20,000 nucleotides of DNA from Chiloscyllium plagiosum. Its lineage: Eukaryota. Position 1 is the stretch's first letter. Every line of letters begins with the position of its first letter. Below, one piece after another: positions 3,941 through 20,000 of the stretch. The notes under the pieces are model-generated. The model worked only from the letters and a program-made list of their open reading frames with translations. It had not been told where the DNA came from and made no database searches. Both the position numbers and the translations under genes were made by a program. Where the stretch lies: contig NC_057718.1 of assembly GCF_004010195.1 (NCBI RefSeq), positions 88,442,894 through 88,462,893 of the forward strand, written 5' to 3'.

Positions 3941-4131
3941 ACCTGGCAGGTCCATCTGCGGAAACTAAAATGTGTAATGTTTTGGTCCAGTGACCCTCTT
4001 TCAGAATGCCCTTCTGGTGAAGGGTCACTGGATCTGAAACGTTAACTCCTGTTTTCTCTCCACCCATGCTACCAGACCTGCTGAGTTTCTCCAGCCATTT
4101 GTTGCTTGCTCAGATTTCCACATCTGCAGTT
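3941..4131 (+). mobile_element. Penelope-terminus-type imperfect palindrome (family B) with decayed hammerhead cores
   Basis: Inverted arms TCCAGTGACCCT (3986-3997) and AGGGTCACTGGA (4021-4032). The plus core reads CTGGTGA-AGGGTCACTGGATCT-GAAACGTTAAC, with CUGAnGA mutated to CUGGUGA. Confidence 0.75.
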
Positions 4132-4179
4132 CCCCTCTTTTTTTGTGTGTAGAGAATTTGGTCAGGTCTGTCACCTACA

Positions 4180-4320
4180 AAATTTTAAACTCTGTCCTCA
4201 CACAGTTTAAGCCGCAGTTGGAATATTAAGCACACATCGTAGGATGCTGGAACAATGGAAAGTAGGCAGTGAAGATTCTGTAAGGATGCCACCCATGAAG
4301 AGGTAGCTAATTATGCTTTG
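4180..4320 (+). mobile_element. Very old CR1 ORF2 C-terminal fragment
   Basis: GTTTAAGCCGCAGTTGGAATATT and CAGTGAAGATTCTGTAAGGATG resemble degenerate VRPQLEY and QRRFTRM motifs. Confidence 0.4.
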
Positions 4321-4861
4321 CCTTACATGGGACTGGCGAACTATGGCCAACATAATGTCGCCAATCACTGTCGATTGTCATCCCCTTCACTCCAGCACAG
4401 GTTGTCATCTGCGCTAAGTGTAGTTGCCAGGCCGACTCCTAGCCAGCCCATCAGTGTTTTCTGCCTGGTGGTGTCCATTCTATTTCCTCTGGTGGAGGTG
4501 GATATCCCAAAAGGTGAAATATATTTGCTGCTAGCCTTCGCTATCTCTATCCATCACAATATCCAGCAAGCACCTCTGATCTGTCTCCAGTGGCGTTTTG
4601 GGGGTGATGTTTTAGGATATAGTTAGGAAGAAATGCTGATGTTCAATGACTTTGTGGTGGTGGGGTGGGAGGTGGAGTTAAAAGGAATGAGTTCAGATAT
4701 TTGGCAGTTTAAGACCGTTTCCATAAAACCAAAGTGGGGTAGTTGACATTTCTGCATTTATCAAAAAAAAGCCTTGGGCTCCTGAGCTGTAAATAGAACC
4801 TTCAAATGTTTAAAAAGGTACAGGGGTGTGGGATCCTTAAGTAGGCCTTTCATTTATGTTC

Positions 4862-4960
4862 AAAACAAAAGCTCAAATTGCTGGGAAAACTCAGGTCTGG
4901 CCACATCTGTGGAGAGAAAGCAGAGTTAATATTTTGGGTCCAGTGAACTTCCAACAGAAC
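4862..4960 (-). mobile_element. Solo half-copy of family B Penelope-terminus-type element
   Basis: The reverse complement aligns by eye to 4012-4110 (TCACTGGA, TTAACTC, TTTCTCTCCAC, CCAGACCTG). The hammerhead core is degenerate. Confidence 0.7.
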
Positions 4961-4962
4961 AG

Positions 4963-5245
4963 GATTTGCATTTATGTAGCATCATGTGCAGCCTCAACAT
5001 CCTGAACCTTTAGCCTCCTCCATTATGAACAGGTGAAATGTAACTTGCAACAGCCATTTGGTGCACCACAAGTTGTCACAATCAGTAATTACAGCACCAC
5101 CGTTACTTGGTAACATTGAATATTAAGTGTTAGCCTGGACCTTAGGGGAGAGATGTGACACCTCTGACAGCGTAGCACTTCCCTGCAGAACTGCACAGAG
5201 GTGTCGGCCTGAGTTTGTGCTCAAGTTGAGAGTGAGACTTGAATG
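4963..5245 (-). mobile_element. Deu-domain tRNA-derived SINE (SacSINE1-like), decayed
   Basis: CACCTCTGACAGCGTAGCACTTCCCTGCAGAACTGCACAGAGGTGTCGGCCTGAGTTTGTGCTCAAG..GAGTGAGACTTGAA matches the reverse of the Deu-SINE head/core. L2-type tail TTGCATTTATGTAGC at the left end. Confidence 0.75.
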
Positions 5246-5273
5246 TAGCATAGCCTTTGGTTTGGTGAATGGA

Positions 5274-5494
5274 GGAGAAAGTGAGGTCTGCAGATGCTGG
5301 AGATCAAAGTTGAAACTTTATTGCTGGAACAGCACAGCAGGTCAGGCAGCATCCAGGGAACAGGAGATTCGACGTTTCGGGCACAGGCCCTTCTTCAGGA
5401 ATCAAGAAGGGCCTGTGCCCGAAACGTCGAATCTCCTGTTCCCTGGATGCTGCCTGACCTGCTGTGCTGTTCCAGCAATAAAGTTTCAACTTTG
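5274..5494. mobile_element. Young Penelope-terminus-type fold-back element (family A): 31-bp unpaired tail plus perfect 91-bp inverted repeat with 8-nt loop
   Basis: Arms 5305-5395 and 5404-5494 are exact reverse complements, and the ORF track gives the same peptides on both strands. Loop CAGGAATC. A 13-bp TSD TTTGGTGAATGGA lies at 5261-5273 and 5491-5503. Confidence 0.93.
5366..5403 (-). ncRNA. Minimal type I hammerhead ribozyme motif, complete core
   Basis: The minus strand reads GAUUC CUGAAGA A GGGC-CUGU-GCCC GAAA C GUC^GAAUC. It has a 5-bp stem I (GAUUC/GAAUC), both conserved core boxes, a 4-bp stem II, a palindromic ACGU mini-stem III and a GUC cleavage triplet. Predicted cut between 5371 and 5370. 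Confidence 0.85.
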
Positions 5495-5682
5495 GTGAAT
5501 GGACCAAAACTGAGGTAGAATTGTTGGACTGGCTGAGTCCTGAACGCCTTATTTGATTTCCAGCTCTGCACATAATTCATGGTTTATGTCTTCATACTCT
5601 CTATTTTATACTGGCTTTCAATCTTTTGTACTTTGGCAATTGATGTTGAACTGTAGTTTTTCATCCCTCGTCACCACCCTTC

Positions 5683-5744
5683 CCAGTGCAGATTTAATGG
5701 GCTGAATGGCCTCTTTCTGCACTGTAGCGATTTAGTCATTCTAT
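5683..5744 (+). mobile_element. HE1/HER1-type 3' tail fragment
   Basis: CAGTGCAGATTTAATGGGCTGAATGGCCTCTTTCTGCACTGTAG..ATTCTATG is similar to the SINE tail at 365-412. Confidence 0.7.
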
Positions 5745-6781
5745 GTCTGACCCTTATTGATTCCAGACCCACGCATCAGCTCTTCTGAAGTGTCTCAGCA
5801 AGCCTTTCTGTATCCTCCGAATGGACAATAAATTCAGACCTTGCCAGCATGTCATCCACATTCCGGGAATCAATAGGAACAAGATAATATACTGCTTCAG
5901 CTATTTACCCCATCTTCCCTGCAAATGGTTTCTGCCTTGAGAGATTTGTTGTCTGTCTGTCTTGGTTTTCATCAAATAAAAACTGATATTTAGCAGCTAT
6001 TTGTCACACACCAGTGGAGGAGATGAGATGCGCTGGGTGCCTTTGAGGCACATTGCAATATGCAAATCTTATCAATAATCAGGAGTCTGAATGTCTGTGG
6101 ATCCTTGCATTTAAAAGGGAATTTTTTTTCGCTTGTTGAATCAGGCTCAAAGGTCCTGTGGCCCCTAAGGGATTTACCAGCTCCCTATCTTAAACCCACC
6201 TAAACAATGGGTGTTGCTACACTCTGCTGATTATATGTCCTTATGCTCAGACTGGCTGGAAGGTCTAGCCTCCATCTTCCAGTAGTTACTTGTAAGTCTT
6301 TGGTGTTCTCCCTACAAAGAGGTTTCTGTTAATGGTAACACAGAATATCTCACCCCCTTCTGCAAAGAACGATGTGGTTGCAAGAATTAAAGCAGCAGGC
6401 TGAATAAAAACCAAAATGAATGAGAGAAGTACAAGGTTACTGAAGTAAACATGAGATTTTCTGCTTGGAGAGAAAAATATGGGCCATGTTAGAATCCATC
6501 TTGTGCCTGTGGTTAAATAAAACTCCACCTGAATCTGGTTGAGATGTTTGTATCTAGTGGCAGTCAGTTGAAGATGTAAATTTAGCAGGAGCACATTAAT
6601 CAGGGATAGTTTGTGTAGTCCCAGCTATGTTAGTTTGATTGTTTAATGGTGTATGTACTGGTCGTTGTTCCAGTTTGCTTTCTGAAATTTTGCTCATACA
6701 GAGTGTAAAATCCTAAGTGTGGAAGGATGTGTGTGTGTGCGCTGAAAGAGCTACCCAACGAATTGCAGTCCCTGGAAGGAC

Positions 6782-6870
6782 AACAGGAACATGGGCCATT
6801 CAGCCCATCAAACCTGCTCGACCATTGCTTAGGATCATGGTCAATCTATGTCAATTCCATTTGCTCACCG
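6782..6870 (-). mobile_element. CR1 LINE 3' terminal fragment
   Basis: GGCCATTCAGCCCATCAAACCTGCTCGACCATT..GATCATGG is the reverse of a CR1 3' UTR. Confidence 0.65.
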
Positions 6871-7069
6871 TGATTTGATTTACTATTGTCACATGTACCT
6901 AAGTATAGCTCCACTGCTGTTCATGTGGAAAATGCCTTTCCCAATTCCATTCTTTAGTCTAATGTTAAGATCTGATTTGCTCACATATTTAAAAATAACA
7001 AATTTAAAATGCTTTATTCACATCAACCCACTGTAAATTTCTATACTTCAGGCAATGGAAGCCAAGGTT

Positions 7070-7330
7070 ATTCGGTTTTTTAACTCTTCAACTCCAATAG
7101 CATTTTCATCCCTATACCTTTAATTCCAAATCAATCTCATTTCCCTTTTGGTATTTGAATTTGCTTCTGACACTTTTTTTTGAGGCAGCAATCCAAATTC
7201 TCAGTAGCTGTTACAATCTTTTTATTATTCTTCTCTTTTTTTGCTAATTATCTTGAATCTGTGTCCTCTAGTTTTCAGTCTCCTGACTGAAAACTATTTC
7301 TCATTTTATTTCATTGAAAGCTCTCATTGG
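7070..7330 (-). mobile_element. Old CR1 3' region fragment
   Basis: CTAATTATCTTGAATCTGTGTCCTCTAGTT is the reverse of the TRGH-type motif. Heavily decayed, boundaries approximate. Confidence 0.45.
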
Positions 7331-7620
7331 AATATCACATTCCCTGCATTCAGACTTGAGCAGAGATGGGTGTGACAGAACCAGAGCATCTTGGAATGTA
7401 GAATGTGTCACTTGAGTGTGTTTCTGTCCTTCAAAAGATTCACTGTTTCTCTTCAGAAACATGAGCAACATGTCAACAGGAAGAGAATATCTGCTCCCTA
7501 TAGCCTGTCTCTCTCAGTCCTGATAATCTTGTGCGTAAATAAACTGCTCTCTCTACCCCTGTCTGAAACTGTAGGATCCCTTAGCTGAGAGAGGCAAATT
7601 ATAAGCCTTGAGGTTTATGT

Positions 7621-7800
7621 AGAGTCCCTACAATGCAAATAGAGGACATTTGGTCCATTTGAGTCTGCATCAATCCTCTGAAGAGCATCCCATCCCATCC
7701 CCCATAACCATGTATTTACCATAGTTACCATATTTACCATAACCATGTAGTCTGCACGTCCCTGAATGCTCTGGGTCAATTTAGAATGGCCAGTCCACTT
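7621..7800 (-). mobile_element. HE1-type SINE, 3' half
   Basis: Aligns by eye in reverse to about 285-415 (CAATTTAGAATGGCCAGTCCAC, CCTCTGAAGAGCATCCCA, tail AGAGTCCCTACAATG). Contains short internal TTACCATA/ACCATG duplications. Confidence 0.75.
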
Positions 7801-8039
7801 CAGGTGAGGGCCTAGTCTTGGATATTATTCTGACCTGCTTTAGGTGACAGAGTAACCTGAGTGAGCACTCTTTTCCTGATGATTCTATTGTTTGCTGTTT
7901 TGTATAAGGTCATCCCTACCCTTTCCAGTAACCGGCCCAGCTCTGAGAGATGTGAAACTTTGGGTGAATGTAGTGTATGTCATTGTTAAAGTGTAAAACT
8001 AAAATGAATCTACCCTCACTCACTTCCCTGTTTCAACAG

Positions 8040-8151
8040 CCTGCTCAGGAGAATGGCCAGATTTCCGGAATCCATAGTAAATCAGAAGATCAAGAGCCGC
8101 TCGATGGAAAAGTGGAGCATCTCAATGTCCAGGAGGAAGCCGTTCGTGAAG
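8040..8151 (+). CDS. Probable internal coding exon (112 bp) of an unidentified host gene; likely peptide PAQENGQISGIHSKSEDQEPLDGKVEHLNVQEEAVRE (phase 0 to 1)
   Basis: Branch-like CTCAC, pyrimidine tract and acceptor CTTCCCTGTTTCAACAG| on the left. Consensus donor AAG|GTGAGT on the right. The sequence is stop-free, purine-rich, retains CpG and resembles no repeat. Confidence 0.75.
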
Positions 8152-8206
8152 GTGAGTGAATGAGACTTTTTTTTGTTTCAAAAGGGGTTGAGGGGAAAGC
8201 AACGTC

Positions 8207-8478
8207 AGAGTCATAGAGCATGGAAATAGACCCTTCAGTCCAATCAGTTCACACCGATCATTTTCCAAACTAAACTTGTCTGACTTGTCTGCATTTGGCC
8301 CATATCCCTCCAACCTTTCCTATTCATGTACTTATCCAAATGCTTTTTAATGTTGTTACAGTACCTGCATCTGCCACTTCCTCTGGTGGTTCATTCCACA
8401 CACGAATCACCCTCTGTGTAAAATTGCCCTTCGTGTCCATTTTTAAACTTACTTCCTCTCACTCGAAAGATATGCCCC
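8207..8478 (-). mobile_element. HER1/CR1 LINE 3' end, 5'-truncated
   Basis: Tail AGAGTCATAGAG, ORF2 end MEGYGPNA, and similarity to 1430-1674 and 9236-9510. Confidence 0.88.
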
Positions 8479-9106
8479 CAGGCAATTGGAGGCAGCTCTG
8501 CTGTGGTGGGTGTGACCTTTTGCTACTGAGTTTGGAGGTCAAATTGGCCCAGACTGGATGAAGATTGCCTCTTGTTTCACCACTAAGAATTGTATGTATC
8601 TTAAAACAAAACTAAAGGGACAGAATCAATTCAGTCCCCACTGAGCACATGCCAACAAAAACACACTGCCAACTTGTTTTAATGACTGGATTACTATTTA
8701 CTGATGAGTCAGTGTGAAAACGGTGGAGGATGAGATTAGTCTTTTTACTTGGACCAGAGGCGTTTGAAAAGTCGGTGTAAAGTCAGCTTTACTCTGCATC
8801 AATTTGCTGGATTTAACCTGGGATTGAGATGCCGGAAATCGATAGATATCATTGGCATAATACTTTCCTTCCTTATGTGCAATTTGAGTAAGAAAATGAG
8901 TGTTAAGACTTGGGTGGGGGGAGTGGGGAGAAACCTGTTTCAATGGTGATTTGAAAGCTTTTCAAAATTCCTTGTCTTGACATTTTGGGAAACTGCTTAT
9001 GTGGGTTATTCTTTTCAGAAGGAATTGAACTGCTCTCTGTACTTGTAAATCCATGCAAGTTGAGACTGCTTTGAAGTTGTTTAGGGTATCATGGAATGCG
9101 GCTCTT

Positions 9107-9230
9107 AGAGTCGTAGATTCATACTGCACAGAAACAGACTCTTTGGTCCATAGACTCACCACCCTCTGCATGAAAAAGTTGCCCCTTGGGTCCCTTTTTA
9201 AATCTTTCCTCTCTCACCTTCAACCTATGC
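9107..9230 (-). mobile_element. Short, internally deleted HER1/CR1 3' end
   Basis: The tail AGAGTCGTAGA..CACAGAAACAGAC is joined directly to CACCCTCTGCATGAAAAAGTTGCCC..ACCTATGC, which is similar to 9439-9508. Confidence 0.8.
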
Positions 9231-9235
9231 ATTCC

Positions 9236-10190
9236 AGAGTCATAGGGATGTACAGCACAGCCACAGGCCCTTCGGTTCAACTCATCCATGCCGACCAGAT
9301 ATTCCAACACAATCTAGTTCCACCTGCCCCATATCCCTCCAAACGCTTCCTGTTCATATACCCATCCAGATGCCTTTTAAATGTTGCAATTGTACTAGCC
9401 TCCATCACTTCATCTGGCAGCTCATTCCATACACGTACCACCCTCTGTGTGAAAAAGTTGCCCGATAGGTCTCTTTCATATCTTTCCTCTCTCACCCTAA
9501 ACCTATGCCCTCTAGTTCTGGACTCCCCCCACCCCAGGGAAAAGACTTTGTCTATTTATCCTATCCTTGGCCCTCCTGATTTTATAAATGTCTATTAAGG
9601 TCACCCCGCAGCCTCCGATGCTCCAGGTAAAACAGCCCTAGCCTATTCAACCTCCTTTCTATAGCTCAACTACTCCAACCCTGACAGCACCTTTTGTAAA
9701 TCTTCTTTTTTTTTTGAATCCTTTCAGGTTTCACAACATCTTTTTGAAAGGAAGGAGATCAGAATTGCACGCAATATTCCAAATGTGGCCTAACCAATGT
9801 CCTGTACAGCCGCAACGTGACCTCCCCAAACCCTGTATTCAATACTCTGACCAATAAAGGAAAGCATACCAAACGCAGTCTTCACTATCCTATCTACCTG
9901 CGGCTCCACTCAAGGAGCTATGAACCTGCACTCCAAGGTCTCTTTATTCAGCAACACTCCCCAGGACCTTACCATTAAGTGTAGAAGTCTAGCTAAGATT
10001 TGCTTTCCCAAAATGCAGCATCTTGCATTTATCTAAATTAAACTCCACCTGCCACTTCTCAGCCTATTGTCCCACCTGATCAAGATCCCATTGTAATCAG
10101 AGGTAACCTTCGTTGTCCACTACACCTCCAATTTTAGTGTTATCTGCAAACTTACTAACTATACCTCTTATGCTCACATCCAAATCATTT
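9236..10190 (-). mobile_element. HER1/CR1 LINE 3' ~950 bp (end of RT, ORF2 C-terminus, 3' UTR)
   Basis: Peptide RDLSGNFFTQRVVRVWNELPDEVMEASTIATFKRHLDGYMNRKRLEGYG. The reverse of the RT motif SKFAD(D/N)TKIGG is at about 10125-10155. Frameshifted. Confidence 0.93.
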
Positions 10191-10191
10191 A

Positions 10192-10235
10192 CAGGGGAAC
10201 CTCGAATATCCAAATGAGATGGGCAGCCACACATT
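10192..10235. mobile_element. Single Tigger/pogo-like terminal inverted repeat remnant
   Basis: TA followed by CAGGGGAACCTCGAATATCC resembles pogo/Tigger TIRs (CAG..RAACCTCGATWATCC). No partner TIR was seen. Confidence 0.5.
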
Positions 10236-11592
10236 CATCTTCTCTATCCTCCTATTCCTGCCCTCACTAGCTTGTAGCACCGGGAGTAATCCAGATATTA
10301 CTACTCTCGAGGACCTCCTTTTTTTAAATTCCTGCCTAACTCTTTGTAATCTCCCTTCAGTATCTCAACCTTTTCCCTTCCTATGTTGTTGGTTCCAATG
10401 TGTACAATGACCACATGCTGGTCCCCCTCCCCCTTGAGAACATACTGCACCTTCTGAGACATCCTTGATCCTGGCACCAGGGAAGCAACACCCCATTGAG
10501 TTTTCACTGCTGGCCACAGAAACATCTGTCTGTACCTCGGACTAGAGAGTTCCCCAACACAATCGATCGCTTGAAACCCGATGTACCCCTCATTACATTA
10601 GAGCCAGTCTCCATACCAGAAACTTGGCTGTTCATGCTACATTCCTGTGAGAATCCATCACCCCCTACATTTTCCAAAACAGCATACCTGTTTGAAATGG
10701 GGATAGCCACAGAAGACTCCTGTACTACCTGCCTACCTCTCTTACCTTTCCTGGAGTTACACTCACATAGAGGAGTTATCTGTGACTCCCCCCGCCCCCC
10801 CCATCACCACCACCCCTTCCTATGACTGCCATCCATCATATCCCCATGATCTTGTAAATTCCTCATTGCCTCTAACTGTGTCTCCATCCAATCCGTTTGA
10901 TCTGATAGGATTCACAACCAACAGCATTTATTGCAGATATAATCCTAAGTAACCCGTAAACTCTCCTCAAACTCCCACATCTGACAAGAAGAGCATATCA
11001 CTCTACGAAGGGCCATTTTTGCTTCTTTCAATCTGTGGACCCAGAAAATAGCACTGTCTTACTCCTCTACAAAACACTGCTCCAGGTTAAATTAATACTT
11101 ATGGCTTATATTTTAAGTTTAATCGAGACCTATCTCAATAAAACAAAAAAAATCAACAAAGAACCCACTTTACTCACTACTGCAGATTTACTGTAAGACT
11201 ACGCTTAAAATATGCACTTATCTGTTTCTGTGCTGTGACTGCTCCCAGGCAGGTTTGTCAAAGATCCGTTGTGAAGTTCACTGTTTGTTAATTTTCCCAG
11301 ACACACTCCGACGTCCACTGATAAATGAATTTCAAACAGCAAAGTCAATAACTGCTAACGGTCAGTTAGCAATGTGGGTTTCTTTCTCTGTTCTTCTCCC
11401 TTTTAAAAGTGCTGTTGTTTTAACTTTTGTTTTCTCTCCAAAGTTCCAAAACAATGGAACAGCATATAAAGCAGTAATTGCTGCTCCTGGAATTCAAGGG
11501 AATCTCCTCCACAGCACCTAAAATACCTCAAAAAAGGAGCAGCTGTTACAGCCAGAAAATTTTCCCGTCCTCCATCTTGGATTACCCAGAAT
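10236..11592 (-). mobile_element. CR1 LINE 5' UTR and decayed ORF1 (zinc-finger/coiled coil plus SGNH/GDSL esterase domain)
   Basis: Peptides IPISNRYAVLENV, SIVLGNSLVRGTD (the GDS motif is decayed), VVIVHIGTNNIG and VVISGLLPV. Cys-rich CSSC..ICNKC segment near 10925-10995. A 5' end resembling GATTCTGGGTAATCCAAGATGG lies near 11592. Confidence 0.88.
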
Positions 11593-11689
11593 CTAGATCT
11601 GTCCACTGAAATCAACTTGCGTGCTTTATTGAAGTTGTTTCCTTTGTTGTACTGAAACCTGTGCTAGTGATAATCTCTAGAGTTATATT

Positions 11690-12361
11690 TGTTATGGACC
11701 AGGCCAGAACCCCACCCCTCCCCAAAAAAAACATTTCAGGAAAGTAGCCCAAACCCTATCTTTGCTAGATGTTTGAAGCAGGTGTAGAGCAGAGATTCCA
11801 GGAGGGATACAGCTGGCCCAATCACTTGGTTTCAAACAAAACAATTTATTTACACGATTATTGAATGCAACACCAAGAACAACAGAATACGGAATAACTT
11901 AACCTGTCTGAAAACCCAACACACAATCCCAACTTAATGATGCTGTTCCAAATTCCTGCAACAATTTCCATAAACACCCCTTGGCAAAAAAGATCAAATC
12001 AAACACTGGGCCTTTTAGGAGACAGATGGCAGAGGGTCTCAGCATGGAACATCTTCTTCCATGTAGCTGTTTCTTGGACCAGCGGCCTCACTGCCTGCTT
12101 TCAGGGAACAGCCAGACTGCTAAAACCAAACCAAATTAGAAAAACTGAGCTGGGGGAACTGGCCACTCCTCTTTCATTGAACAAATGTATTTTTCTAAAA
12201 GCTTGTAAGCCTTTTACCTGAGGGGAGTATCTGTTAGCTATAATCAAACTGATCCCAGAACCCTTCAAACCTAGACTTTTCGGAATTGCTGCTTTTATGA
12301 CCTCTGGGGAGGAAAAATGCCAAGGATAGTATAAAGTTGTTAAAGGAGCACTGTTGTCACA
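11690..12361 (-). repeat. 3' LTR (TG...CA)
   Basis: Starts TGTTATGGACCAGG and ends GTCACA. Direct repeat of 15588-16517. Minus-strand AATAAA at 11845-11850. Confidence 0.92.
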
Positions 12362-12372
12362 TCTCCACTCTT
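12362..12372 (-). promoter_or_regulatory. Polypurine tract
   Basis: Minus-strand AAGAGTGGAGA directly abuts the LTR start TGTGAC. Confidence 0.75.
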
Positions 12373-12544
12373 GTTTTTAAAAAAAAATGAACCATCAATA
12401 TCCAAAGATGGCTTCATTTTAAAACCCCTTAATTTTAAATTGTTAGTACACTACAACACACATGCGTTAGGTTGAAATAATCATGCAAACATGAACTATC
12501 ACATTGTTGTCTATTTTAATCCCAACACCAAATGCCTCTGTTTC

Positions 12545-13016
12545 TCATTCACGTCTCGGCAATGCGTCGGCAATCACAATTTCTCGTCCTGCCACATGCA
12601 CAATTGCCAAATTGAATGGCTGTAACAACAAGCTCCATCTAAACAGTCTGGCATTTTTGTCCTTCGATTTCTCAACAAACTTCAATGGGTTACAATCAGT
12701 GTATATGATTGTCTCCAATACATCACTGGTAACATAACTGAAATGTTGTAACACCAGCACCAAGCTCAGTCTCCTCCTCAACTATCAAATATTTCTGATG
12801 AATGTTCAAATTCCTGGAGAAATATCCAATAGGTCTTTCTGTGGTTCTCGTCTTCCTGTCAGAGCTCAGTACTGACACCCATATCACTAACTTCAATAGC
12901 CCCTTGAATGGCTTTGTGTAATTAAGTATGGTTAATACTGGGGCAGTGGTTAACACAGCTTTCAGGCTGTCAAATGCCTTCAGGCAGTCCGCTGTCCCAC
13001 TGAAACTACTTGCCAT
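12545..13016 (-). pseudogene. Gypsy RT connection and RNase H remnant (C-terminus of pol)
   Basis: Peptides AFDSLKAVLTTAPVL, RPIGYFSRNLN, IIYTDCNPLKF, ARLFRWSLLLQPFNLAIVHVAGREIVIADALPR, followed by a stop and then the 3' UTR and PPT. Confidence 0.92.
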
Positions 13017-13830
13017 TCTTTAGCAATTCAGTGAGGGGAGCAGCCACACTGCTAAAATTTGGTATGAATTTTTCAATAAAATCCACTCAATCCCAGGAAT
13101 TGTGGTACTGTTCTTTTTGTCAGTTGGTATGGGAAAATCCCCAGTTACCTCTTTTTTTTGTTTTTGTATCCTGTGGGTCCATTTGTCCATGTGCAATAAC
13201 ACAGCCCAGGAAGATGACTTGGGCTTTAGCAAGTTCACTCACTTTTAGCCAGGTTTATCACCAAGCCTGCCTTCCGAAGTTGATAGAACAAGTCTGATAA
13301 ATGTTGCAAATGTTCTTTCCATGTGTGACGAAAAATCACCAGGTCATCAATATATATGACACAATAGGATAATCTAGCAGTGACTTTATTGGTTAGTCTC
13401 TGAAATGTGGCTGGCATGTTTTTCATACCAAATGGCATGACTTTAAACTGATACAGTCCATTTGGCGTGATGAAAACAAATTGTCTTTGCTCCTTCGGAC
13501 AAAGGCATCTGCCAGTATCCTTTGGGCAAGTTCAACTTAGAAATAAGTTGCGTGTCCCACTTTTTTTCAACAGTCTTCCAAACGTGGAATCAGATTTGCA
13601 TCAGCCTTTGTACCTGCATTGACTTTGCAACAGTCCAAACAACCGTTGGGTACCATCTGGTTTTGGCAGCATTACATTGGGTGAGCTCCAGTCACTGTAA
13701 CTCACTTCAATTATATCGTCCTGGAGCATGCGTTCAATCTCCTTTTGAGCCTGTACCAACTTTAGAGCTTTATGTCTATAAGGATGTTGCTTAATTGGAA
13801 CAGCATCTCCTGTATCTACATCATGCATAA
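13017..13830 (-). pseudogene. Gypsy reverse transcriptase remnant
   Basis: Peptides HDVDTGDAVPIKQHPYR, IIEVSYSDWSSP, MPFGMKNMPATFQRL and the catalytic YIDD. Frameshifted. Confidence 0.95.
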
Positions 13831-14618
13831 CTAGGGTAGTACTTCCCAGCCTATTTCTACATATCTCTCCATGTGACAGTAATAACTCTTTCAGGTCATT
13901 TCAATTTTCCTTTGGAAGGTAACTCAACAATTTTATCCCAATTTTCGATAACTTCCTCACTGTCTAATTTAATAAGGAATGTCCAATTCCGAATCCTCTG
14001 AACTTGGTTCTTCCTGCTGTGTTGTCACCTATAACAGTCTTCTCTGGCTTTCCTTCCCTGTCAAAATATCTTTTGAGCATACTCGCATGACAGCCTGAGA
14101 TTTCTTTCTGTCTGGAGTCCTTATCAAATAATTCATCTCATGCAATTTCCTTTCAACTTGATATGGTCCACCTAACGTTGGAAGTAACACTAATACCTTA
14201 TCCCTAATCACAAAATTGCAAGTTTTTGATTTTTTAAAAAATCTGCTTGTTGTTTAATTGTATGCTGTGATACTTAAAGTGCTGTCTAGCCAACTTCCCC
14301 GTTCTACTTAAATCATTCCCTAAAGGTTTGACACATGGTCCAAATATGTGGTCTCTGAATTCTGATTTACCAATTTCTCCTTAATCAATTTTAACAGTCC
14401 TCTCACTTCATGCCCAAAATCTAATTCACTTGGACTGAATTTGGTCAATTCATTTGGTGCATCTCTGATCACAAAGTACAAATGGAATTCCCCTATCCCA
14501 ATCAGCTGGATAGTCTTGGCAAGAAGCCTTCAACGTGGTCTTTAATGTATGTTGCTACCTTTCTGGATGATATGCAGTAGATTTGAATTGCTTTATTCCT
14601 AAGCTGTCCATAACTTAA

Positions 14619-14811
14619 ATGATTTGGAGATGCAGGTGTTGGACTGGGGTGTACAAAGTTAAAAATCACACCACCAGGTTTAATTAGAAGCACACTAGCT
14701 TTTGGAGCGTCGCTCCTTCACAATCGCCTGATGAAGGAGCAATGCTCCAAAAGCTAGTGTGCTTCCAATTTATCTTGTTGGACTATAATCTGGTGTTGTG
14801 ATTTTTAACTT
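14619..14811. mobile_element. Penelope-terminus-type fold-back element (family C) with apex hammerhead carrying a GAAA to AAAA mutation
   Basis: Arms about 14656-14720 and 14732-14811. The plus strand 14725-14759 reads CGC CUGAUGA A GGAGC-AAU-GCUCC AAAA G CUA GUG. TSD-like TAACTT(A/G)AAT at 14611-14620 and 14806-14815. Interrupts the integrase frame. Confidence 0.85.
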
Positions 14812-14972
14812 GAATATTTTTTGTTGTAGCGTTTGACCCTTGATCTGATTCTATCTCTGTGGGTAGTCCATATCTGGTGAAATATTTGAGGAATTCCCCT
14901 ACGATTCTTTTAGCTGTGATATTGCGTAATGGTACGGCCTCTGGAAGTCTAGTGGACACATCCATTATTGTT

Positions 14973-15109
14973 TAAAAATGCCTTCCTGAAGAAGGGCTTA
15001 TGCCCGAAACGTCGATTCTCCTTCTCCTTTGCTGCCTGACCCACTGCGCTTTTCCAGCAACACATTTTTAAGTCCTGATCTCCAGCATTTGCAGTCCTCA
15101 CTTTCTCCT
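14973..15109 (+). mobile_element. Solo (non-palindromic) family A element with hammerhead core and 15-bp TSD
   Basis: TSD ACATCCATTATTGTT at 14958-14972 and 15110-15124, duplicating the integrase codons TIMDV. The body is the reverse-complement homolog of 5274-5400. Confidence 0.9.
14984..15015 (+). ncRNA. Minimal hammerhead ribozyme core, catalytic nucleotides intact, weak stem I
   Basis: UC CUGAAGA A GGGC-UUAU-GCCC GAAA C GUC^GA. Only 2 bp of stem I pair next to the core. Confidence 0.65.
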
Positions 15110-15184
15110 ACATCCATTATTGTTAACAAATACTGATTCCCACTTTTTGTTGAGGTAGGGGGTCTTATGCAATCAATCAAGACT

Positions 15185-15450
15185 GTTTCCTTTCTGTTGC
15201 TCTTTACTTGTCTTTTGCCTCTAACTCAAGCTGTTTCATTTTCACGTGAACTTTAGCCATCTTCAAAGATTCTGCTGGTATTTCTGGCAAACTTAAATGC
15301 TGAACTATTGCAGTAATTATCTCTCCTTTCCTCATGGAAGGAGGCAGCTCCAACCCCAGCTTGTCGGCTAATTCCAGCAGCTTGGCCTTAATCACCTTTT
15401 ATAAAATCCCCAAGGTCACTACTTCTATCCCCAGAAAACTCTTGATGACT
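15185..15450 (-). pseudogene. N-terminus of Gypsy gag, truncated by the internal deletion
   Basis: KAKLLELADKLGLELPPSMRKGEIITAIVQHL followed by coiled-coil MKQLELEAKDK, fused directly to the integrase VLIDC. Confidence 0.75.
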
Positions 15451-15569
15451 GAAGCAAGCACTGATTTTAAACCAACTGAATTTAACACCTGGAACAAAAG
15501 ACACTAAGACCTACAACTCGCTGCCTATGAGCCCAGGAACCATAATCCCAAATCTGAACTATAGGACAA

Positions 15570-15587
15570 ATCCTAGCCAAGCCCCTG
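15570..15587 (-). promoter_or_regulatory. Decayed tRNA-Pro-like primer binding site
   Basis: Plus-strand ATCCTAGCCAAGCCCCTG versus the tRNA-Pro 3' end ATCCCGGACGAGCCCCCA, 12 of 18 by my count. Adjacent to the 5' LTR. Confidence 0.55.
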
Positions 15588-16517
15588 GTTTATGGACCAG
15601 GCTAGACCCCCTCAAAACATTTCCAGAAAGTAGCCCAGACCCTAACTTTGTTTTTAAGCAGGTGTAAGTGAATATTCCAAGAGTGATGCAGCTGACCCAA
15701 CCACTGGATTTTAAACAAAACAGAATTTATTTACACGATTATCTGATGAAACACAAACAAAAGAGAACAGAAAACAGAATAACTTAACCTATCTGAAAAC
15801 CCAGCAGACTATCCCAATTTAATAATGCTGTTCCAAATTCCTGCAACAATCCTGTAAATGCTCCCTTGGCAAAAAAGTAACATCAAACACAGGGTCTTAC
15901 AGGAGACTGAGATGGCAGAAAGATTCAGCATGGAACACCTTCCATGTAGCTGTTTCTTGGTGTTGTGGAGTTTTTAACCTAATTGCTTCTAGCGTCTATT
16001 GCACTTCCCATTCGTGGATTTGGATTTCTCTTCACACATCTTTGTGCACATTGTCAAGAAAGTCACCCTCCATTCATAAAACATCTCTTTCCGACCCCCT
16101 CCCACCTTCTCTTGCTGACTTATTTTGGGAAAGTTAAAATATCTTCCATGATTATTCTAGGCCTTTCACTCATTTGTTTACAGATTCCTTCCTTTGAGTG
16201 GACTATCTGCAGACTAGCCTATCAGTCCACATGACAATAAAGGAAAGCAGCTTCTGAACTGCCTGCTTTCAGTGAACAGCCCGACTGCTAAACCAAACCA
16301 GAGAAAAGCTGAGCTGGGAGAACTGGCTGTTCCTCTTTCATTGTACAAGTTTTTTTTAACTTGAAGGCCTTTTGCCTGAGACAGTATCTGTTAGCTATAG
16401 TCAAACTGGCCCCAAATACCTAGACCTTTTGGAATTGCTGCTTTTGTGACCTTTTGGGGAGGGGGCGGAAAAAAGCCAAGGACAGCATAACATTGTTAAA
16501 GAAGCAGCATCGTCAAA
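15588..16517 (-). repeat. 5' LTR, containing a foreign ~290-bp insertion
   Basis: Aligns to 11690-12361 on both sides of 15961-16247. Ends GTCAAA (versus GTCACA) followed by the TSD TATT. Confidence 0.9.
15958..16247 (-). repeat. Inverted copy of 17134-17425 inserted into the 5' LTR
   Basis: Reverse-complement match with about 10 substitutions and one 2-bp indel (manual count). Absent from the 3' LTR. Confidence 0.95.
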
Positions 16518-16811
16518 TATTACAGCCAGGCAGGATGCTGTAGCCAGTCAGGAAACACCATTAGTTTTGGCTTTGACTGGGTAGAGCATTAGATTTTAAT
16601 GAAAGTCACCAGCATTCATCAGTTGTAGCCAGCACAACTGACACCATTGTTTCAGCCACTAAGCAGTGGGTCCCAATCATGTGAAATGAGCATAGGATTT
16701 AGGTGATTTTGTTCTTAAGCCTGACTGTGCCTGTGCAGAAGATTTCTTCAACTCATTTGCTAAGCGAATATGTCACACAGTCTTTATTGTAAGTGTTGAA
16801 TTTTTAATTTG

Positions 16812-17058
16812 GCTCTTACTGCTTCTGAGTTAGAAGGTAATGGATTTAAGTACCACTCTGGAGACTTGAGCATGAAATTCAGGTTGACGTTGCAGCACAA
16901 GAACGGAGTGCTCCTTTCTTCAGATGGTATGTTATTACCAAAGTGAGACAGATTTGCAATATTAATTCTTCAACCAGTAATACAAGATGACCTCATTAAT
17001 CTCATTGTCCTTTTTAGGAGTTTGCTATGCAAAAATTGGTTGATGCATTTCCTACAGT
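16812..17058 (+). mobile_element. Deu-domain tRNA-derived SINE (SacSINE1-like), decayed and internally deleted
   Basis: Head CTTCTGAGTTAGAAGGTAATGGATTTAAGTACCACTCTGGAGACTTGAGCA and 3' part GGAGTTTGCTATGCAAAAATTGGTTGATGCATTTCCTACA. Same family as 4963-5245 in the opposite orientation. Confidence 0.7.
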
Positions 17059-17133
17059 TGGAGCATGCTCCTATTTGGACCCAAGGCATAGATATTATGT
17101 TCCCATGTCATTGACTAGTTAACCTGAGCGATT

Positions 17134-17425
17134 CTTTCCTTTATTGTCATGTGGACTGATAGGTTAGTCTGCAGGTAGTCCACTCATAAAGGAAGGAATC
17201 TGTAAACAAATGAGTGAAAGGCCTAGAATAATCATGGAAGATTTTTTAACTTTCCCAAAATAAGTCAGCAAGAGAAGGTGGGAGGGGGTCGGAAAGAGGT
17301 GTTTTATGAATAGAGGGTGACTTTCTTGACAATATGCACAAAGACGCGTGAAGAGAAATCCGAATCCACGAATGGGAAGTGCAATAGACGCTAGAAGCAA
17401 TTAGGTTAAAAACCCCACAACACCA
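17134..17425 (+). repeat. Source segment of the inverted duplication (unique DNA plus the first 22 bp of the hairpin insert)
   Basis: See 15958-16247. Confidence 0.95.
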
Positions 17426-17524
17426 GGTTATGGTCCAACAGTCCAAATAAACCTGTTGGCTATAACCTGGTGTGTATGATTTCTAACTTTGTCCAGCTCA
17501 CTCCAACACCAGCACCTCCACATC
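17404..17524. mobile_element. Family C fold-back element lacking the hammerhead-containing apex; 11-bp TSD
   Basis: TSD AGAAGCAATTA at 17393-17403 and 17525-17535. Arms ACACCAGGTTATGGTCCAACAG and CTGTTGGCTATAACCTGGTGT. The tail TCCAACACCAGCACCTCCACATC is the reverse homolog of 14620-14645. Confidence 0.85.
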
Positions 17525-17603
17525 AGAAGCAATTAAAGTGAACATGTTGGCAATAATAACTGTAACAAAAAAGATTTCTGGTCAGATCATGTCAATTTGA
17601 GTA

Positions 17604-17817
17604 CAGGCCATTTTGCTAAAACAAGCATTTCATTAACGCAAATTCACTAATGGGATTGATGAATTGGGGACACTATTTCGAAAGTGTGAACCTTTAAAAC
17701 GCATTGGCTGTAACGCAATTGCATCACCAACACTCTAAGCACTGTTTCGAAAGTGTGATTTTTCAATAACATGGGGTTGCATAAGAACGCAACCATCACG
17801 TTAGGAATATCTGCATG
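17604..17817. mobile_element. Tigger/pogo-like MITE
   Basis: Flanked by TA on both sides. Decayed TIR-like ends CAGGCCATTTTGCTAAAAC and CGTTAGGAATATCTGCATG. Internal 19-bp direct repeat CACT(A/G)TTTCGAAAGTGTGA at 17671-17689 and 17740-17758. Confidence 0.6.
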
Positions 17818-17969
17818 TATCCATCACTGTCATTGACAATATCCCCACTGTAGTGGGCCAACAGTGTTCTTGACCACCCGCTTTCCCTTTATATTACTGT
17901 AAAACTTCTTATTGATTTGGGTATCTCTGGCAAGCTTTTGGTTTCATAATCCTTTTTCTAAAAACTCAT

Positions 17970-18141
17970 AAGATGGGACAGTAGATTGCTGGGGCATTTT
18001 AAGGAGTTGAGAGACAGAATTATTTTATTGGTTATTGGGAGCAGATAAGAGTTGAGGTTGAGGTGAGATCACCCATGATTGTATTAAATGGTGGAGTGAG
18101 CTTGGACCTGAATTGCCTATTCCTGCTACATGTTCTTATGT
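17970..18141 (+). mobile_element. CR1 LINE 3' end, decayed
   Basis: AGATCACCCATGATTGTATTAAATGGTGGAG..CTGAATTGCCTATTCCTGCTACATGTTCTTATGTT is a CR1-type 3' UTR and tail. Confidence 0.7.
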
Positions 18142-18479
18142 TGTTATAACAGGATAACTAAGAGATTTTCAAGAGAAATATTCAGTTTCAGAAAAATGTA
18201 ATGGATGAACCAAGACCCATGGATAAAATCTAAGCATTAAGGAAGGAAATAGAGACAGAAATTAGAAAGGTTTTAACAACTGAAATTAAATCAGTTGAAT
18301 ATTTATTGCAAGGTGGTGAACGTAAATAACAAAAGAAAATTCAAACGGGATAGAATCATTAAAAGTCACCAGATTAAACTCTTGAATGCTGATTTGAAAT
18401 TCAGAAAGATTGAGTTATTTTGCCTCTGTTTCCACCAAGAGGGACTTAACAGGAGGGACAAATGTGATATTATAAAGAA

Positions 18480-18930
18480 ATAACAATTGAGTGAAAGAAA
18501 GAAGTGGTGATTGACAAACTAATCAAACTGAAGAAAGGATGAAAGCCCTTGCTTGTGCATAATAAAATATGTATAAAGATAGAAAATGGAGTAGTGCAGA
18601 GAATTAACAGACAGCTGGTGGAATAGGGAGATGGAATAGGTTCAAGGAATCATAGGTGAACATTGGTCATGTGGACTGATGGAATCTTCACTTAAAGATG
18701 TAATAAAACATATCAAGAACCTATAAAGACCAGGGTAGTCAATGTGGATTTCTAAACTAGATTTTGTTAACTACAAAAAAAAGCTAAAGCACAATGTAGC
18801 TAGACACTATATTTGGATTTCAAAAGTCCTACAGTAATGTTCTTCATAGAAAATTAATGAGTCCAGGACAAGTAGCAGAATACATTGTACACTGGCTACA
18901 AAATAGTTGATAAGCGTTGAATGTCTGGAT
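18480..18930 (+). mobile_element. Very old CR1-like ORF2 remnant
   Basis: ATATTTGGATTTCAAAAG..TCTTCATAGAAAATTA resembles YLDFQKAFDKVPHRRL in A-rich sequence. Boundaries are uncertain. Confidence 0.4.
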
Positions 18931-19131
18931 TAGTAAAATATTTATGTTGGAATCCGTTTGCCCTTCATTTCAAAACATGACAATGTCATGTCAGTATTTT
19001 AAAAGCATGGAAGACTGTCTACAAGACAAAATTAATCACCTTTTGGAACAGCAAGTAATTGGTAAATGTGTTCTAATACAGTAAAATATTCCAATGAGCA
19101 AAAGGCACAGAAGAATAATGGAAGCTTTTAA

Positions 19132-20000
19132 TTTCCTAGCTTCCAGCCCTGCTGTATTTTCACCATCCCTCCAGACCTCCCCCTCTCTGAGGATGAAAGA
19201 TCAGTCCTCAGCAGAGGCCTCAACTTCGTCCCCCTACGCTCCCGGACTAACGAATTCAACACACGGCGAGATGTCAAACAATTCTTCTGCCGCCTTCGCC
19301 TCTGCGCCTACTTCTTCAACCAGGACTCCTGCCCACCCTCTGACGACCCTTTCTCCCGCCTCCAACACACCCCATCCACCTGGACACCCCGTGCTGGCCT
19401 CTTATCTGCCCTCGATCTCTTCATAGCCAACTGCCGCCGTGACATTGACCGCCTCAACCTGTCCACCCCTCTCTCCCACTCCAACCTCTCACCCTCTCAA
19501 CGTGCAGCCCTCCACTCCCTCCACTCCAACCCCAACCTCACTGTCAAACCGGCAGACAAAGGAGGCGCGGTAGTAGTTTGGCTCACCGATCTTTATATTG
19601 TTGAGGCTAAACGCCAGCTCGCGGACACCTCCTCCTACTGCCCCCTTGACCATGACCCCACCTCCCACCACCAAACCATCATCTCCCAGACCATCCGTAA
19701 CCTCATCACCTCAGGGGATCTCCCATCCACCGCTTCCAACCTCATAGTCCCACAACCCTGCACCGCTCGTTTCTGCCTCCTGCCCAAAATCCACAAACCT
19801 GACTGCCCCGGCCAACCCATTGTCTCAGCCTGCTCCTGCCCCACCGAATTCATTTCTGCATACCTTGACACGGTCCTTTCCCCCTTAGTCCAAGAACTCC
19901 CCACCTACGTTTGGGACACCACCCACGCCATCCACCTCCTCCATGATTTTCGCTTCCCTGGCCCCCAACGCCTTATCTTCACCATGGACATCCAGTCCCT
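19132..20000 (+). mobile_element. Penelope-like retroelement reverse transcriptase ORF, N-terminal part, stop-free to the window edge
   Basis: My translation of frame +1 after the TAA at 19129-19131: IFTIPPDLPLSEDERSVLSRGLNFVP..FFCRLRLCAYFF..STWTP..SNLSPSQRAALHSL..TVKPADKGGAVVVW..FCLLPKIHKPDCPGQPIVSACSCPTE..LPTYVWDT..IFTMDIQS. This carries the PLE-diagnostic DKG motif and RT motifs 1-3. No in-frame ATG near the start, so it is probably 5'-truncated. Confidence 0.93.

Follow-up and report, generated by a model that had tools for sequence, protein, structure and literature searches.

Penelope-like elements (PLEs) of the EN+ group, Neptune/Nematis type, are described as carrying a single ORF with a reverse transcriptase (RT), a CX4CxxC linker and, at its C-terminus, a GIY-YIG domain, together with a pseudo-LTR (pLTR) hammerhead, 5'-truncated copies, a 5'-truncated copy in inverted orientation and, at one end, a tail of 30-40 bp (PMC8557442), all of which recur in the shark genome considered here. 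What sets the shark apart is that its insertions, mostly 95-250 bp long, have one narrow start and number an estimated 0.8-0.9 million in the genome; a fixed 5' end and an extra G are absent from the accessible part of that account. Minimal PLE hammerheads have the core boxes, an extra base before stem II, a palindromic 15.2-16.2 element and a short helix I, and occur, as here, mostly as single motifs from truncated PLEs and as opposite-strand pairs (PMC4209133, as far as its accessible text goes). In the anole Poseidon element PAc, RT was reported in vitro to start at two internal sites 30-40 nt apart, which makes the tail, and to extend both target strands; insertion had no need of hammerhead cleavage, and a dimer was predicted (PMC11167929). 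PAc belongs to a different clade, however, and the shark ORF starts at +162 (position 0 being the C of the CUGA box throughout), not in stem II. Nor, in the accessible portion of that paper, are the two sites paired within one fold-back or run-off products described as genomic inserts.

Two further known systems are close to the shark one. In the rotifer Penelope capture, as in the shark, pLTRs are the cis signal that mobilises host sequence, and an inverted pLTR carries a tail on one arm, with a target-site duplication (TSD) of 8-10 bp; the accessible account there covers few events in a low-copy genome and invokes self-priming, whereas the shark has a young non-coding passenger with 199 junction copies, for which twin priming is favoured (PMC3846280). 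Retrozymes are, like the inserts here, non-coding, hammerhead-bearing and PLE-derived (PMC7229834; bioRxiv 10.64898/2026.07.22.740005), but are described as tandemly repeated, with processing at the cleavage site (PMC7229834), whereas the six shark inserts stand solo or head-to-head, with ends placed without regard to that site.

Short inserts in the window and their parent elements

The window, meaning the whole 20,000-nt stretch of Chiloscyllium plagiosum DNA analysed, contains all six short inserts proposed in an earlier sequence-only reading. These fall into family A (3941-4131, 4862-4960), family B (5274-5494, 14973-15109) and family C (14619-14811, 17404-17524), the terminal piece being a pLTR with a hammerhead motif and an optional 35-nt tail.

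4012-4132 within 3941..4131, plus strand: family A terminus with tail, -2..+120, preceded by a decayed inverted arm at 3941-4006
4862..4968, minus strand: family A terminus, single arm -4..+97; degenerate core; 9-bp TSD at 4851-4859 / 4969-4977
5274..5494, fold-back without a single strand: young family B, minus arm -4..+125, plus arm +3..about +90
14619..14811, fold-back without a single strand: family C, minus arm +4..+121 with tail, plus arm -14..+85 without tail
14973..15109, plus strand: family B terminus, -3..+125; intact core 14986-15009; 15-bp TSD at 14958-14972 / 15110-15124
17404..17524, fold-back without a single strand: family C without hammerhead core, minus arm +45..+83, plus arm +36..+121
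19134..20000, plus strand: 5'-truncated family B PLE ORF; N-terminal part of RT, 90% identical to a natural copy (L140)

Four TSDs had been proposed, of 13, about 10, 15 and 11 bp, and were recovered as 13 (5261-5273 / 5491-5503), 9 exact, 15 and 11 bp (17393-17403 / 17525-17535); the 9-bp repeat carries the family A insert from 4862 to about 4968. No TSD was found in the flanks of 3941..4131 or 14619..14811. TSDs of these termini range from 9 to 16 bp, and since 35 of 144 sampled insertions had one of at least 9 bp, against 0-3 in 20 flank shuffles, they are not due to chance. The inverted segments are likewise real, with arms at 5305-5395 / 5404-5494 (100% identity) and 14671-14720 / 14732-14781, and the first 8-9 nt of 14973..15109 read, by eye, as a tiny inverted arm corresponding to its own +82..+90. 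The minus arm of 5274..5494 is identical to a long copy over 130/130 nt. No tandem arrays were found in the window.

The density of inserts, which had been thought special, is the genome average. We counted 52 insertions in the 195 kb upstream (5.3 per 20 kb) and 98 in scattered sequence totalling 393 kb (5.0 per 20 kb); overall, 589 kb were sampled at about 5 per 20 kb, and 10 of 30 20-kb bins held six or more. An insertion hotspot was accordingly rejected, and the window represents an average sample with nothing special about it as a locus.

Families A, B and C are each the 3' terminus of their own RT/GIY-YIG PLE. On its sequence features, family B classes as an EN+ PLE, having an ORF with RT and GIY-YIG, a pLTR, inverted 5'-truncated copies and a tail. 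Past position 20000, where a GIY-YIG domain and a terminus were to be sought, the window ORF enters a 1,116-N assembly gap, and a family B terminus lies on the same strand about 1.35 kb beyond the window; L140, a gapless natural copy, has RT and GIY-YIG ending in that terminus. Its 649-aa open frame matches RVT_1 (E 1.3e-08) and GIY-YIG (E 2.9e-04, just under the curated cutoff, the motif being visible by inspection), and its linker before GIY-YIG, CX4CxxC, fits the Neptune clade CX2-5CxxC, which is common to Nematis too. The family B tail is joined to further sequence in 370 copies, where the ORF opens at +162, placing a pLTR before the ORF start. This arrangement was pieced together from several copies, no single complete gapless element occurring among those read; at 30 tail-to-ORF junction loci, few 5' pLTRs were readable to -4, many being gap-cut or rearranged. 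The family A terminus follows a decayed ORF end at one locus (L081; 33-71% amino acid identity to the B ORF, in pieces), and the family C terminus follows decayed ORF ends at two (L099 and L097; about 34% for L099).

A PLE RT as mobiliser of these termini is thus supported, but not the window ORF as helper for all three families: A and C follow their own ORF remnants, and the ORF at 19134-20000, a 5'-truncated family B copy that is missing the 5' pLTR and no fewer than 300 N-terminal codons, was rejected as a local helper because it lacks its 5' part. A Pfam search with this ORF alone returned no match because the ORF ends where the RT core begins.

The hammerhead motif was evaluated at two levels. 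The minimal type I features (core boxes, stem II, palindromic stem III, NUH site and helix I) are present at family level but in only two of the six window inserts. The claim that all three families keep the boxes therefore holds for the families and not for the window, where an intact core with stem II occurs only at 5375-5398(-) and 14986-15009(+); both A copies, including the degenerate core of 3941..4131, have altered boxes, the C copy at 14729, in 14619..14811, has lost G12, and 17404-17524 begins at +36. Exact-core patterns matched 46,176 times for B, 17,799 for C and 130 for A, with none for a reversed-pattern control. Together these three narrow patterns give 64,105 matches in the genome, compared with the 4,000 in coelacanth and 9,000 in Xenopus found remarkable in the accessible text of PMC4209133; axolotl retrozyme hammerheads are put at up to 120,000 (PMC7229834). 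Extrapolated from the sample, intact cores number an estimated 0.25-0.3 million.

Structural conservation, also proposed earlier, is borne out by compensatory helices across families, helix I pairs differing between families yet remaining paired. Helix pairs were counted per family; a joint 18-row alignment was set aside, with stem II out of register and host DNA in helix I of many rows. The commoner RNA-read variants listed sit at N7, loop II and one helix I base. An Rfam scan of the window gave no hammerhead match at E up to 10 and only weak hairpin matches below gathering scores, and single-strand folding of four inserts scored only the C arm better than shuffles (z -3.8), with helix I not predicted. 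The sequences are PLE termini bearing minimal type I hammerhead motifs. The hammerhead appears to be conserved in active masters, yet would not be what defines these inserts, and most dispersed hammerhead-terminus copies are likely inert.

Ends of the copies and the origin of short inserts

With tens of thousands of near-identical young insertions, the mechanism can be read from their ends. These were mapped in one young B subfamily, on 100 arms selected by +48..+82 alone. Their 3' ends formed two clusters, +84..+100 (46 arms) and +121..+125 (54 arms). The 5' ends lay at -6..0 in 46 arms, spread across that interval and not at a single base, further upstream over a wide range in 20 and at +1..+45 in 34; they thus concentrate at hammerhead helix I. 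Among arms without a visible inverted partner, 20 of 45 begin at -6..0. Genome-wide, 1,297 arms start exactly at -4 and 34 at -13. An extra G often precedes the start: by hand count of the listed rows, in 51 of 100 at -4 versus 5 of 34 at -13, a small and T-rich control (Fisher p 2e-4). After two recurrent junctions were collapsed, the -4 count was 51 of 85 (p 4e-5 versus -13; background G share 0.26), and excluding rows that looked like fold-backs by eye it was 35 of 60. A scripted count on a subset of loci showed a less clear excess for B (14 of 33 at -4), to which the upstream letters of other B subfamilies contribute T; in the same type of count G preceded family C starts at -8 (5/5) and -5 (4/4) and two of four family A starts. 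Separately, an inverted arm can itself supply the G before a -4 start.

The hammerhead cleavage site marks no insert end. None of the 100 arms starts at +28, where the cleavage product would begin, and four start at +26..+30, while the 3' ends lie 60-100 nt beyond the site. In RNA-read run X22, 82 reads exit the element at -4 into unrelated flanks; the run, from a library not made for that purpose, showed no peak of molecule starts or ends, a point against the capped start proposed below, and none at the cleavage site.

The concentration of 5' ends at helix I, frequently behind an additional G, suggests that copying ran off the start of a capped RNA rather than being truncated at random. We consider it probable that the six inserts are terminal pieces of three PLE families and that most such inserts arose when RT began about 90 or 125 nt inside the capped element RNA and ran off its 5' end. 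Transcription would start at the A of a CA step, -4 in B and -8/-5 in C, and the extra G may be a copied cap or a run-off addition, an untemplated G having been attributed to the cap in L1/SVA (PMC3287187). Eight of the ten haplotypes with at least three copies (258 arms) are common to short and long copies, and a ninth is found at the terminus of a locus that bears an ORF. Most of the short inserts probably arose as by-products of autonomous elements.

More tentatively, and with less than even confidence, we propose that these elements replicate through a strong stop like LTR retroelements, RT starting in the 5' pLTR, running off the capped end at helix I and jumping to the 3' pLTR. The jump may land on a hammerhead-cut end repeating -4..+27, and the pLTR would be regenerated.

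Ordinary 5' truncation, in which RT copying the full mRNA from the 3' pLTR stalls or falls off at the hammerhead fold so that the pile-up marks a pause site and not an RNA end, is unlikely, even though truncation is usual for PLE copies (PMC8557442, PMC8969392), the pile-up in B and A falls on helix I's 5' strand, and the 20 arms that continue upstream do so over a wide range. A hairpin stall should leave ends on the 3' side, not just past the hairpin; the C ends at -8 and -5 fall outside its 3-bp helix I; and a pause predicts no extra G.

Fold-backs and a non-coding passenger family

The fold-back architecture had been thought poorly described, but its fold-back-plus-tail form is already in PMC8557442 and PMC3846280. 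Here, one tailed and one untailed arm were found in 41 of 43 sampled pairs and in 22 of 22 young pairs, two of which share one lineage. Either arm can be longer: the untailed one goes further 5' by 10 nt or more in 12 of 41 pairs, and by up to 221 nt among young pairs; copying of the tailed strand cannot make such an arm, and the pattern fits twin priming. Synthesis would begin at the distal site from one target end and at the proximal site from the other, the cDNAs probably being joined by microhomology. Junctions are mostly distinct from one another, many lying on the short near-palindrome -4..+7.

One family B junction outside the window has 199 genome copies. Of the 28 that were examined, host DNA is present in 17 (up to 3 kb, about 99.9% identical), eight are units of exactly 440 bp, each with its own TSD, and 21 of the 28 have a TSD. 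Translation of 1.28 kb of the carried DNA gave no long ORF. The family is thus a non-coding unit present at many sites, with a PLE-type 3' end, a variable 5' end and new TSDs. Its source locus was not found: 16 of 25 loci are gapped at a GT tract, where the shared sequence ends in the other 9. The junction with its host DNA and the re-mobilised units show that termini can mobilise non-coding passengers, so the independent mobility proposed earlier holds for this other fold-back elsewhere in the genome and not for any of the six window inserts. If RT start sites are internal, any terminus-containing transcript could be copied, which would account for non-coding passenger families.

Snap-back self-priming of one cDNA or antisense RNA, with the endonuclease trimming the tail from one arm, was proposed for rotifer PLEs (PMC3846280), and the many junctions on the near-palindrome would suit it. 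We regard it as improbable here, given the untailed arms that reach further 5' than their partners. Moreover, the left arms of single TSD-bounded passenger insertions reach -147, -177, -228, -518 and -567, where the passenger sense arm offers only -76, and the left arm of two of the eight regenerated units contains the sense-arm variant, a point that we also count against it.

It is somewhat less probable still that 95-130 nt units with their own internal promoter propagate like SINEs as the main source of new short copies. The Drosophila Penelope pLTR has an internal promoter (PMC2377424), which a unit beginning at the transcription start would retain; re-mobilised units exist, and the junction and both ends of 5274-5494 are common to three copies. 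Against this stand the haplotypes common to short and long copies, the general dissimilarity of junctions, and the rarity of the window junction itself, of which 21,376 arms yielded only five cases, one having its tail on the opposite arm. A SINE with a Pol III RNA-gene head was rejected, the inserts aligning end to end with PLE termini with no Rfam family at gathering score. Non-LTR retrozymes, freed by self-cleavage, circularised and reinserted, have their origin in PLE pLTRs and are known from one chondrichthyan (bioRxiv 10.64898/2026.07.22.740005), and other parts of this genome contain hammerhead units of 194-224 bp in tandem, but with none of the six in tandem and no end at the cleavage site the earlier suggestion of retrozyme-like units fails and this origin is very improbable.

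A literature search, thin for subscription papers and Repbase/Dfam notes, found no match for the 5'-end pile-up with extra G, the tailed/untailed pairing or the 199-copy passenger junction, and no report of shark PLE hammerheads, its coverage stopping short of the retrozyme preprint supplements that list chondrichthyan families. Within the accessible texts, pLTR and twin priming appeared together in no paper, and Penelope-like with strong-stop only in one fungal Copia paper.

Run-off from internal start sites makes exact predictions: the RNA should start at -4, priming should occur at +90 and +125, and the cleavage site should have no role. Strong-stop replication, if true, would mean that failed jumps left near a million mini-inserts in this shark, and that a mini-insert inside a host transcript could found a new retroposon family using two RNAs per insertion. 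The passenger family provides a vertebrate case in which a dead terminus has made kilobases of host DNA part of a very young repeat family.

Window inserts and their genomic background

All six inserts described in the sequence-only reading were present in the window, and target-site duplications (TSDs) of 13, 9, 15 and 11 bp were found on the four said to carry them. The inserts derive from three Penelope-like element (PLE) families, an element class that is already known.

3941-4131, family A, decayed
4862-4968, family A, decayed
5274-5494, family B, intact hammerhead core and stem II
14619-14811, family C, core at 14729 with G12 missing
14973-15109, family B, intact hammerhead core and stem II
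17404-17524, family C, without hammerhead core
19134-20000, + strand, ORF

TSDs of at least 9 bp (9 to 16 bp) flanked 35 of 144 insertions in an unselected sample, versus 0 to 3 in 20 shuffles. Density was determined in 588,665 non-N bases, made up of 200 kb adjoining the window plus 40 pieces of 10 kb scattered over 23 other large contigs. The 150 insertions recorded (5.0 to 5.3 per 20 kb) covered 4.7% of sampled bases, and 10 of 30 bins held six or more, so the window matches the genomic norm, and six inserts in 20 kb are no special density. Among core-spanning arms in this sample, intact cores occurred in 35/70 (B), 14/29 (C) and 0/18 (A). Scaled to 3.56 Gb, an extrapolation from large contigs only, these values correspond to some 0.8-0.9 million insertions, and to about 0.25-0.3 million intact cores. 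PLE expansion has been noted in the whale shark, in the accessible text of 10.1101/443036.

The earlier observation on the six inserts was partly right. Conservation of the hammerhead boxes stood for the families, with 46,176 (B), 17,799 (C) and 130 (A) exact core matches and none for any reversed control, but not for the window copies, only two of which have intact cores. The motif is solid at the family level. Helix I pairing was kept although base pairs vary from family to family, as read in 30 loci per family selected on the core.

Helix I pairs by family
B: C:G, U:A, U:A or U-U (a mismatch in the commonest subfamily), A:U
A: U:A, U:A, G:C, A:U
C: C:G, A:U, C:G

Other repeats were also found in the window. 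An inverted duplicate of ~290 bp (15958-16247 / 17134-17425, 97% identical) includes the left flank, TSD and first 22 bp of the family C insert at 17404; its other copy, 0.9 kb upstream, interrupts another repeat. Segments 11690-12310 and 15590-16460 (~85% alike) are two copies of an unnamed repeat, and 990-1676, 9235-9978 and 8312-8423, with copies on opposite strands, are presumably CR1-type LINE 3' ends.

Parent elements and insert ends

Beyond base 20000, a 1,116-N gap leads to a family-B terminus oriented like the window ORF; a gapless copy spans the corresponding interval in 1,450 bp. The expected GIY-YIG domain and terminus were recovered at the gapless locus L140, where a single open frame encodes RT, a CX4CxxC linker and GIY-YIG before a family-B terminus. 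The named proteins nearest to the family-B ORF belong to Chiloscyllium punctatum (84%), whale shark and rays, which makes the host a cartilaginous fish. Since family-B ORFs begin at +162 (0 being the C of the CUGA box) and the window copy begins only at 19134, it is missing at least 300 codons as well as the 5' pseudo-LTR (pLTR). This copy is a dead sibling, and we rejected it as the proposed helper RT. Family A and C termini are preceded by their own decayed ORF ends. A terminus of one family has often inserted beside or into one of another family (loci L097, L118, L176:8099-8669).

Insert ends were analyzed in one young B subfamily of 21,376 arms, using the first 100 listed, selected on +48..+82 only. 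The 3' ends formed two clusters (46 near +90, 54 near +125), as expected from the two RT start sites of an anole PLE (PMC11167929, accessible text). Of the 5' ends, 46 lay at -6..0, 20 further upstream and 34 at +1..+45, one of this last group (+34) being an ungapped-extension artefact; none of the 100 began at the cleavage product (+28). Across the genome, 1,297 copies started exactly at -4 versus 34 at -13. The base preceding -4 was G in 51, A in 33 and T in 16 of 100 listed (hand count), 13 A and 4 T rows coming from two recurrent junctions, whereas G preceded -13 in 5/34 (hand count; p 2e-4). By scripted count of read loci, G preceded B starts at -4 in 14/33, C starts in 5/5 at -8 and 4/4 at -5, and A starts in 2/4. 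We take these starts to resemble a Pol II initiator. We infer that the short inserts are run-off cDNA of RNA beginning at helix I. In L1 and SVA, an untemplated 5' G is ascribed to the cap (PMC3287187, accessible text). The -4 boundary also appeared in RNA reads of transcribed copies (82 reads, mixed flanks), a library with neither a start peak nor a cleavage peak.

Fold-back arms and junctions

In fold-backs, which pair two inverted terminus arms, the optional 35-nt 3' tail was on one arm only in 41/43 sampled pairs (p ~1e-10 versus independent ends), 22/22 young pairs and 3/3 paired window inserts; 3941-4131, its inverted arm being decayed, was counted among the single tailed arms. A tail at one end is already described (PMC8557442, PMC3846280, accessible text). 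Either arm may extend further 5'. Snap-back copying of the tailed strand could produce inverted arms, but such a copy cannot exceed its template, and the untailed arm reached at least 10 nt further 5' in 12/41 pairs. Two primings on RNA therefore fit better.

Fold-back junctions were mostly unique, and 8/10 common haplotypes occurred in both short and long copies (258 arms; passenger loci excluded). Over 130 nt, the minus arm of 5274-5494 matches the long copy L022 without a difference. For these six inserts, the notion of a non-autonomous system of their own, served by a helper in the window, was not supported. The 5274-5494 junction had five occurrences: three share their ends but differ in TSD, one has its tail on the opposite arm, and one is short. 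Recurrence by chance is plausible; it may also reflect re-mobilisation.

Further junctions recur: one in 13/100 and another in 4/100 rows starting at -4, a fold-back at -166/-75 containing 49 bp of ORF, and a -676/-897 fold-back (loci L307, L308, L310, L368, L370, L374; L222 and L270); these are probably further re-mobilised masters. Head-to-tail units of 194-224 bp, each a family-B terminus plus ORF start, occur up to five in a row (L292-L295, L311-L313, L317-L318, G000:C8:24157653-24158520), and one of their junctions recurs at unlinked loci. The definition of a retrozyme suits them better than it does the window inserts.

A passenger family outside the window

One family-B junction, met by chance in the young set, had 199 occurrences in the genome, of which 28 were read. 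Identical upstream host DNA of up to 3,072 bp (~99.9% identity) was carried by 17/28, with differing 5' cut points and TSDs in 10/17; 8/28 were bare 440-bp fold-backs (TSDs 13-19 bp; left end +88..+90, master arm reaching +100) and 3/28 were cut within the left arm. A GT tract marks the start of the carried DNA, the first 356 bp of which are present in at least 40 identical copies. Among 25 passenger copies, five (L351, L355, L358, L363, L369) stop where an older family-B terminus within the carried sequence ends, as though that terminus too had acted as an RT start site.

In several TSD-bounded copies the left arm enters PLE UTR or ORF past the extent of the sense arm, and 5/12 were joined 5' to same-direction ORF pieces, which means either two RNAs per insertion or a read-through RNA that includes an upstream PLE. 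These copies suggest that a terminus is enough to mobilise non-coding RNA; pLTR sufficiency was also concluded in rotifers (PMC3846280, accessible text), and the shark case is at family scale.

Much of this setting is already described in the accessible text of earlier reports: minimal pLTR hammerheads, single motifs scattered through genomes and pairs on opposite strands (PMC4209133), inverted PLE copies, tails and non-autonomous Chlamys elements (PMC8557442), pLTR-driven DNA capture (PMC3846280) and PLE-derived retrozymes, one chondrichthyan included (PMC7229834; bioRxiv 10.64898/2026.07.22.740005). In the accessible literature, no earlier description was found of a fixed 5' end bearing an extra G, of arm lengths as an argument for twin priming, or of a passenger family in a vertebrate. 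The end patterns seen across the families, together with the passenger family, provide testable evidence on the mechanism.
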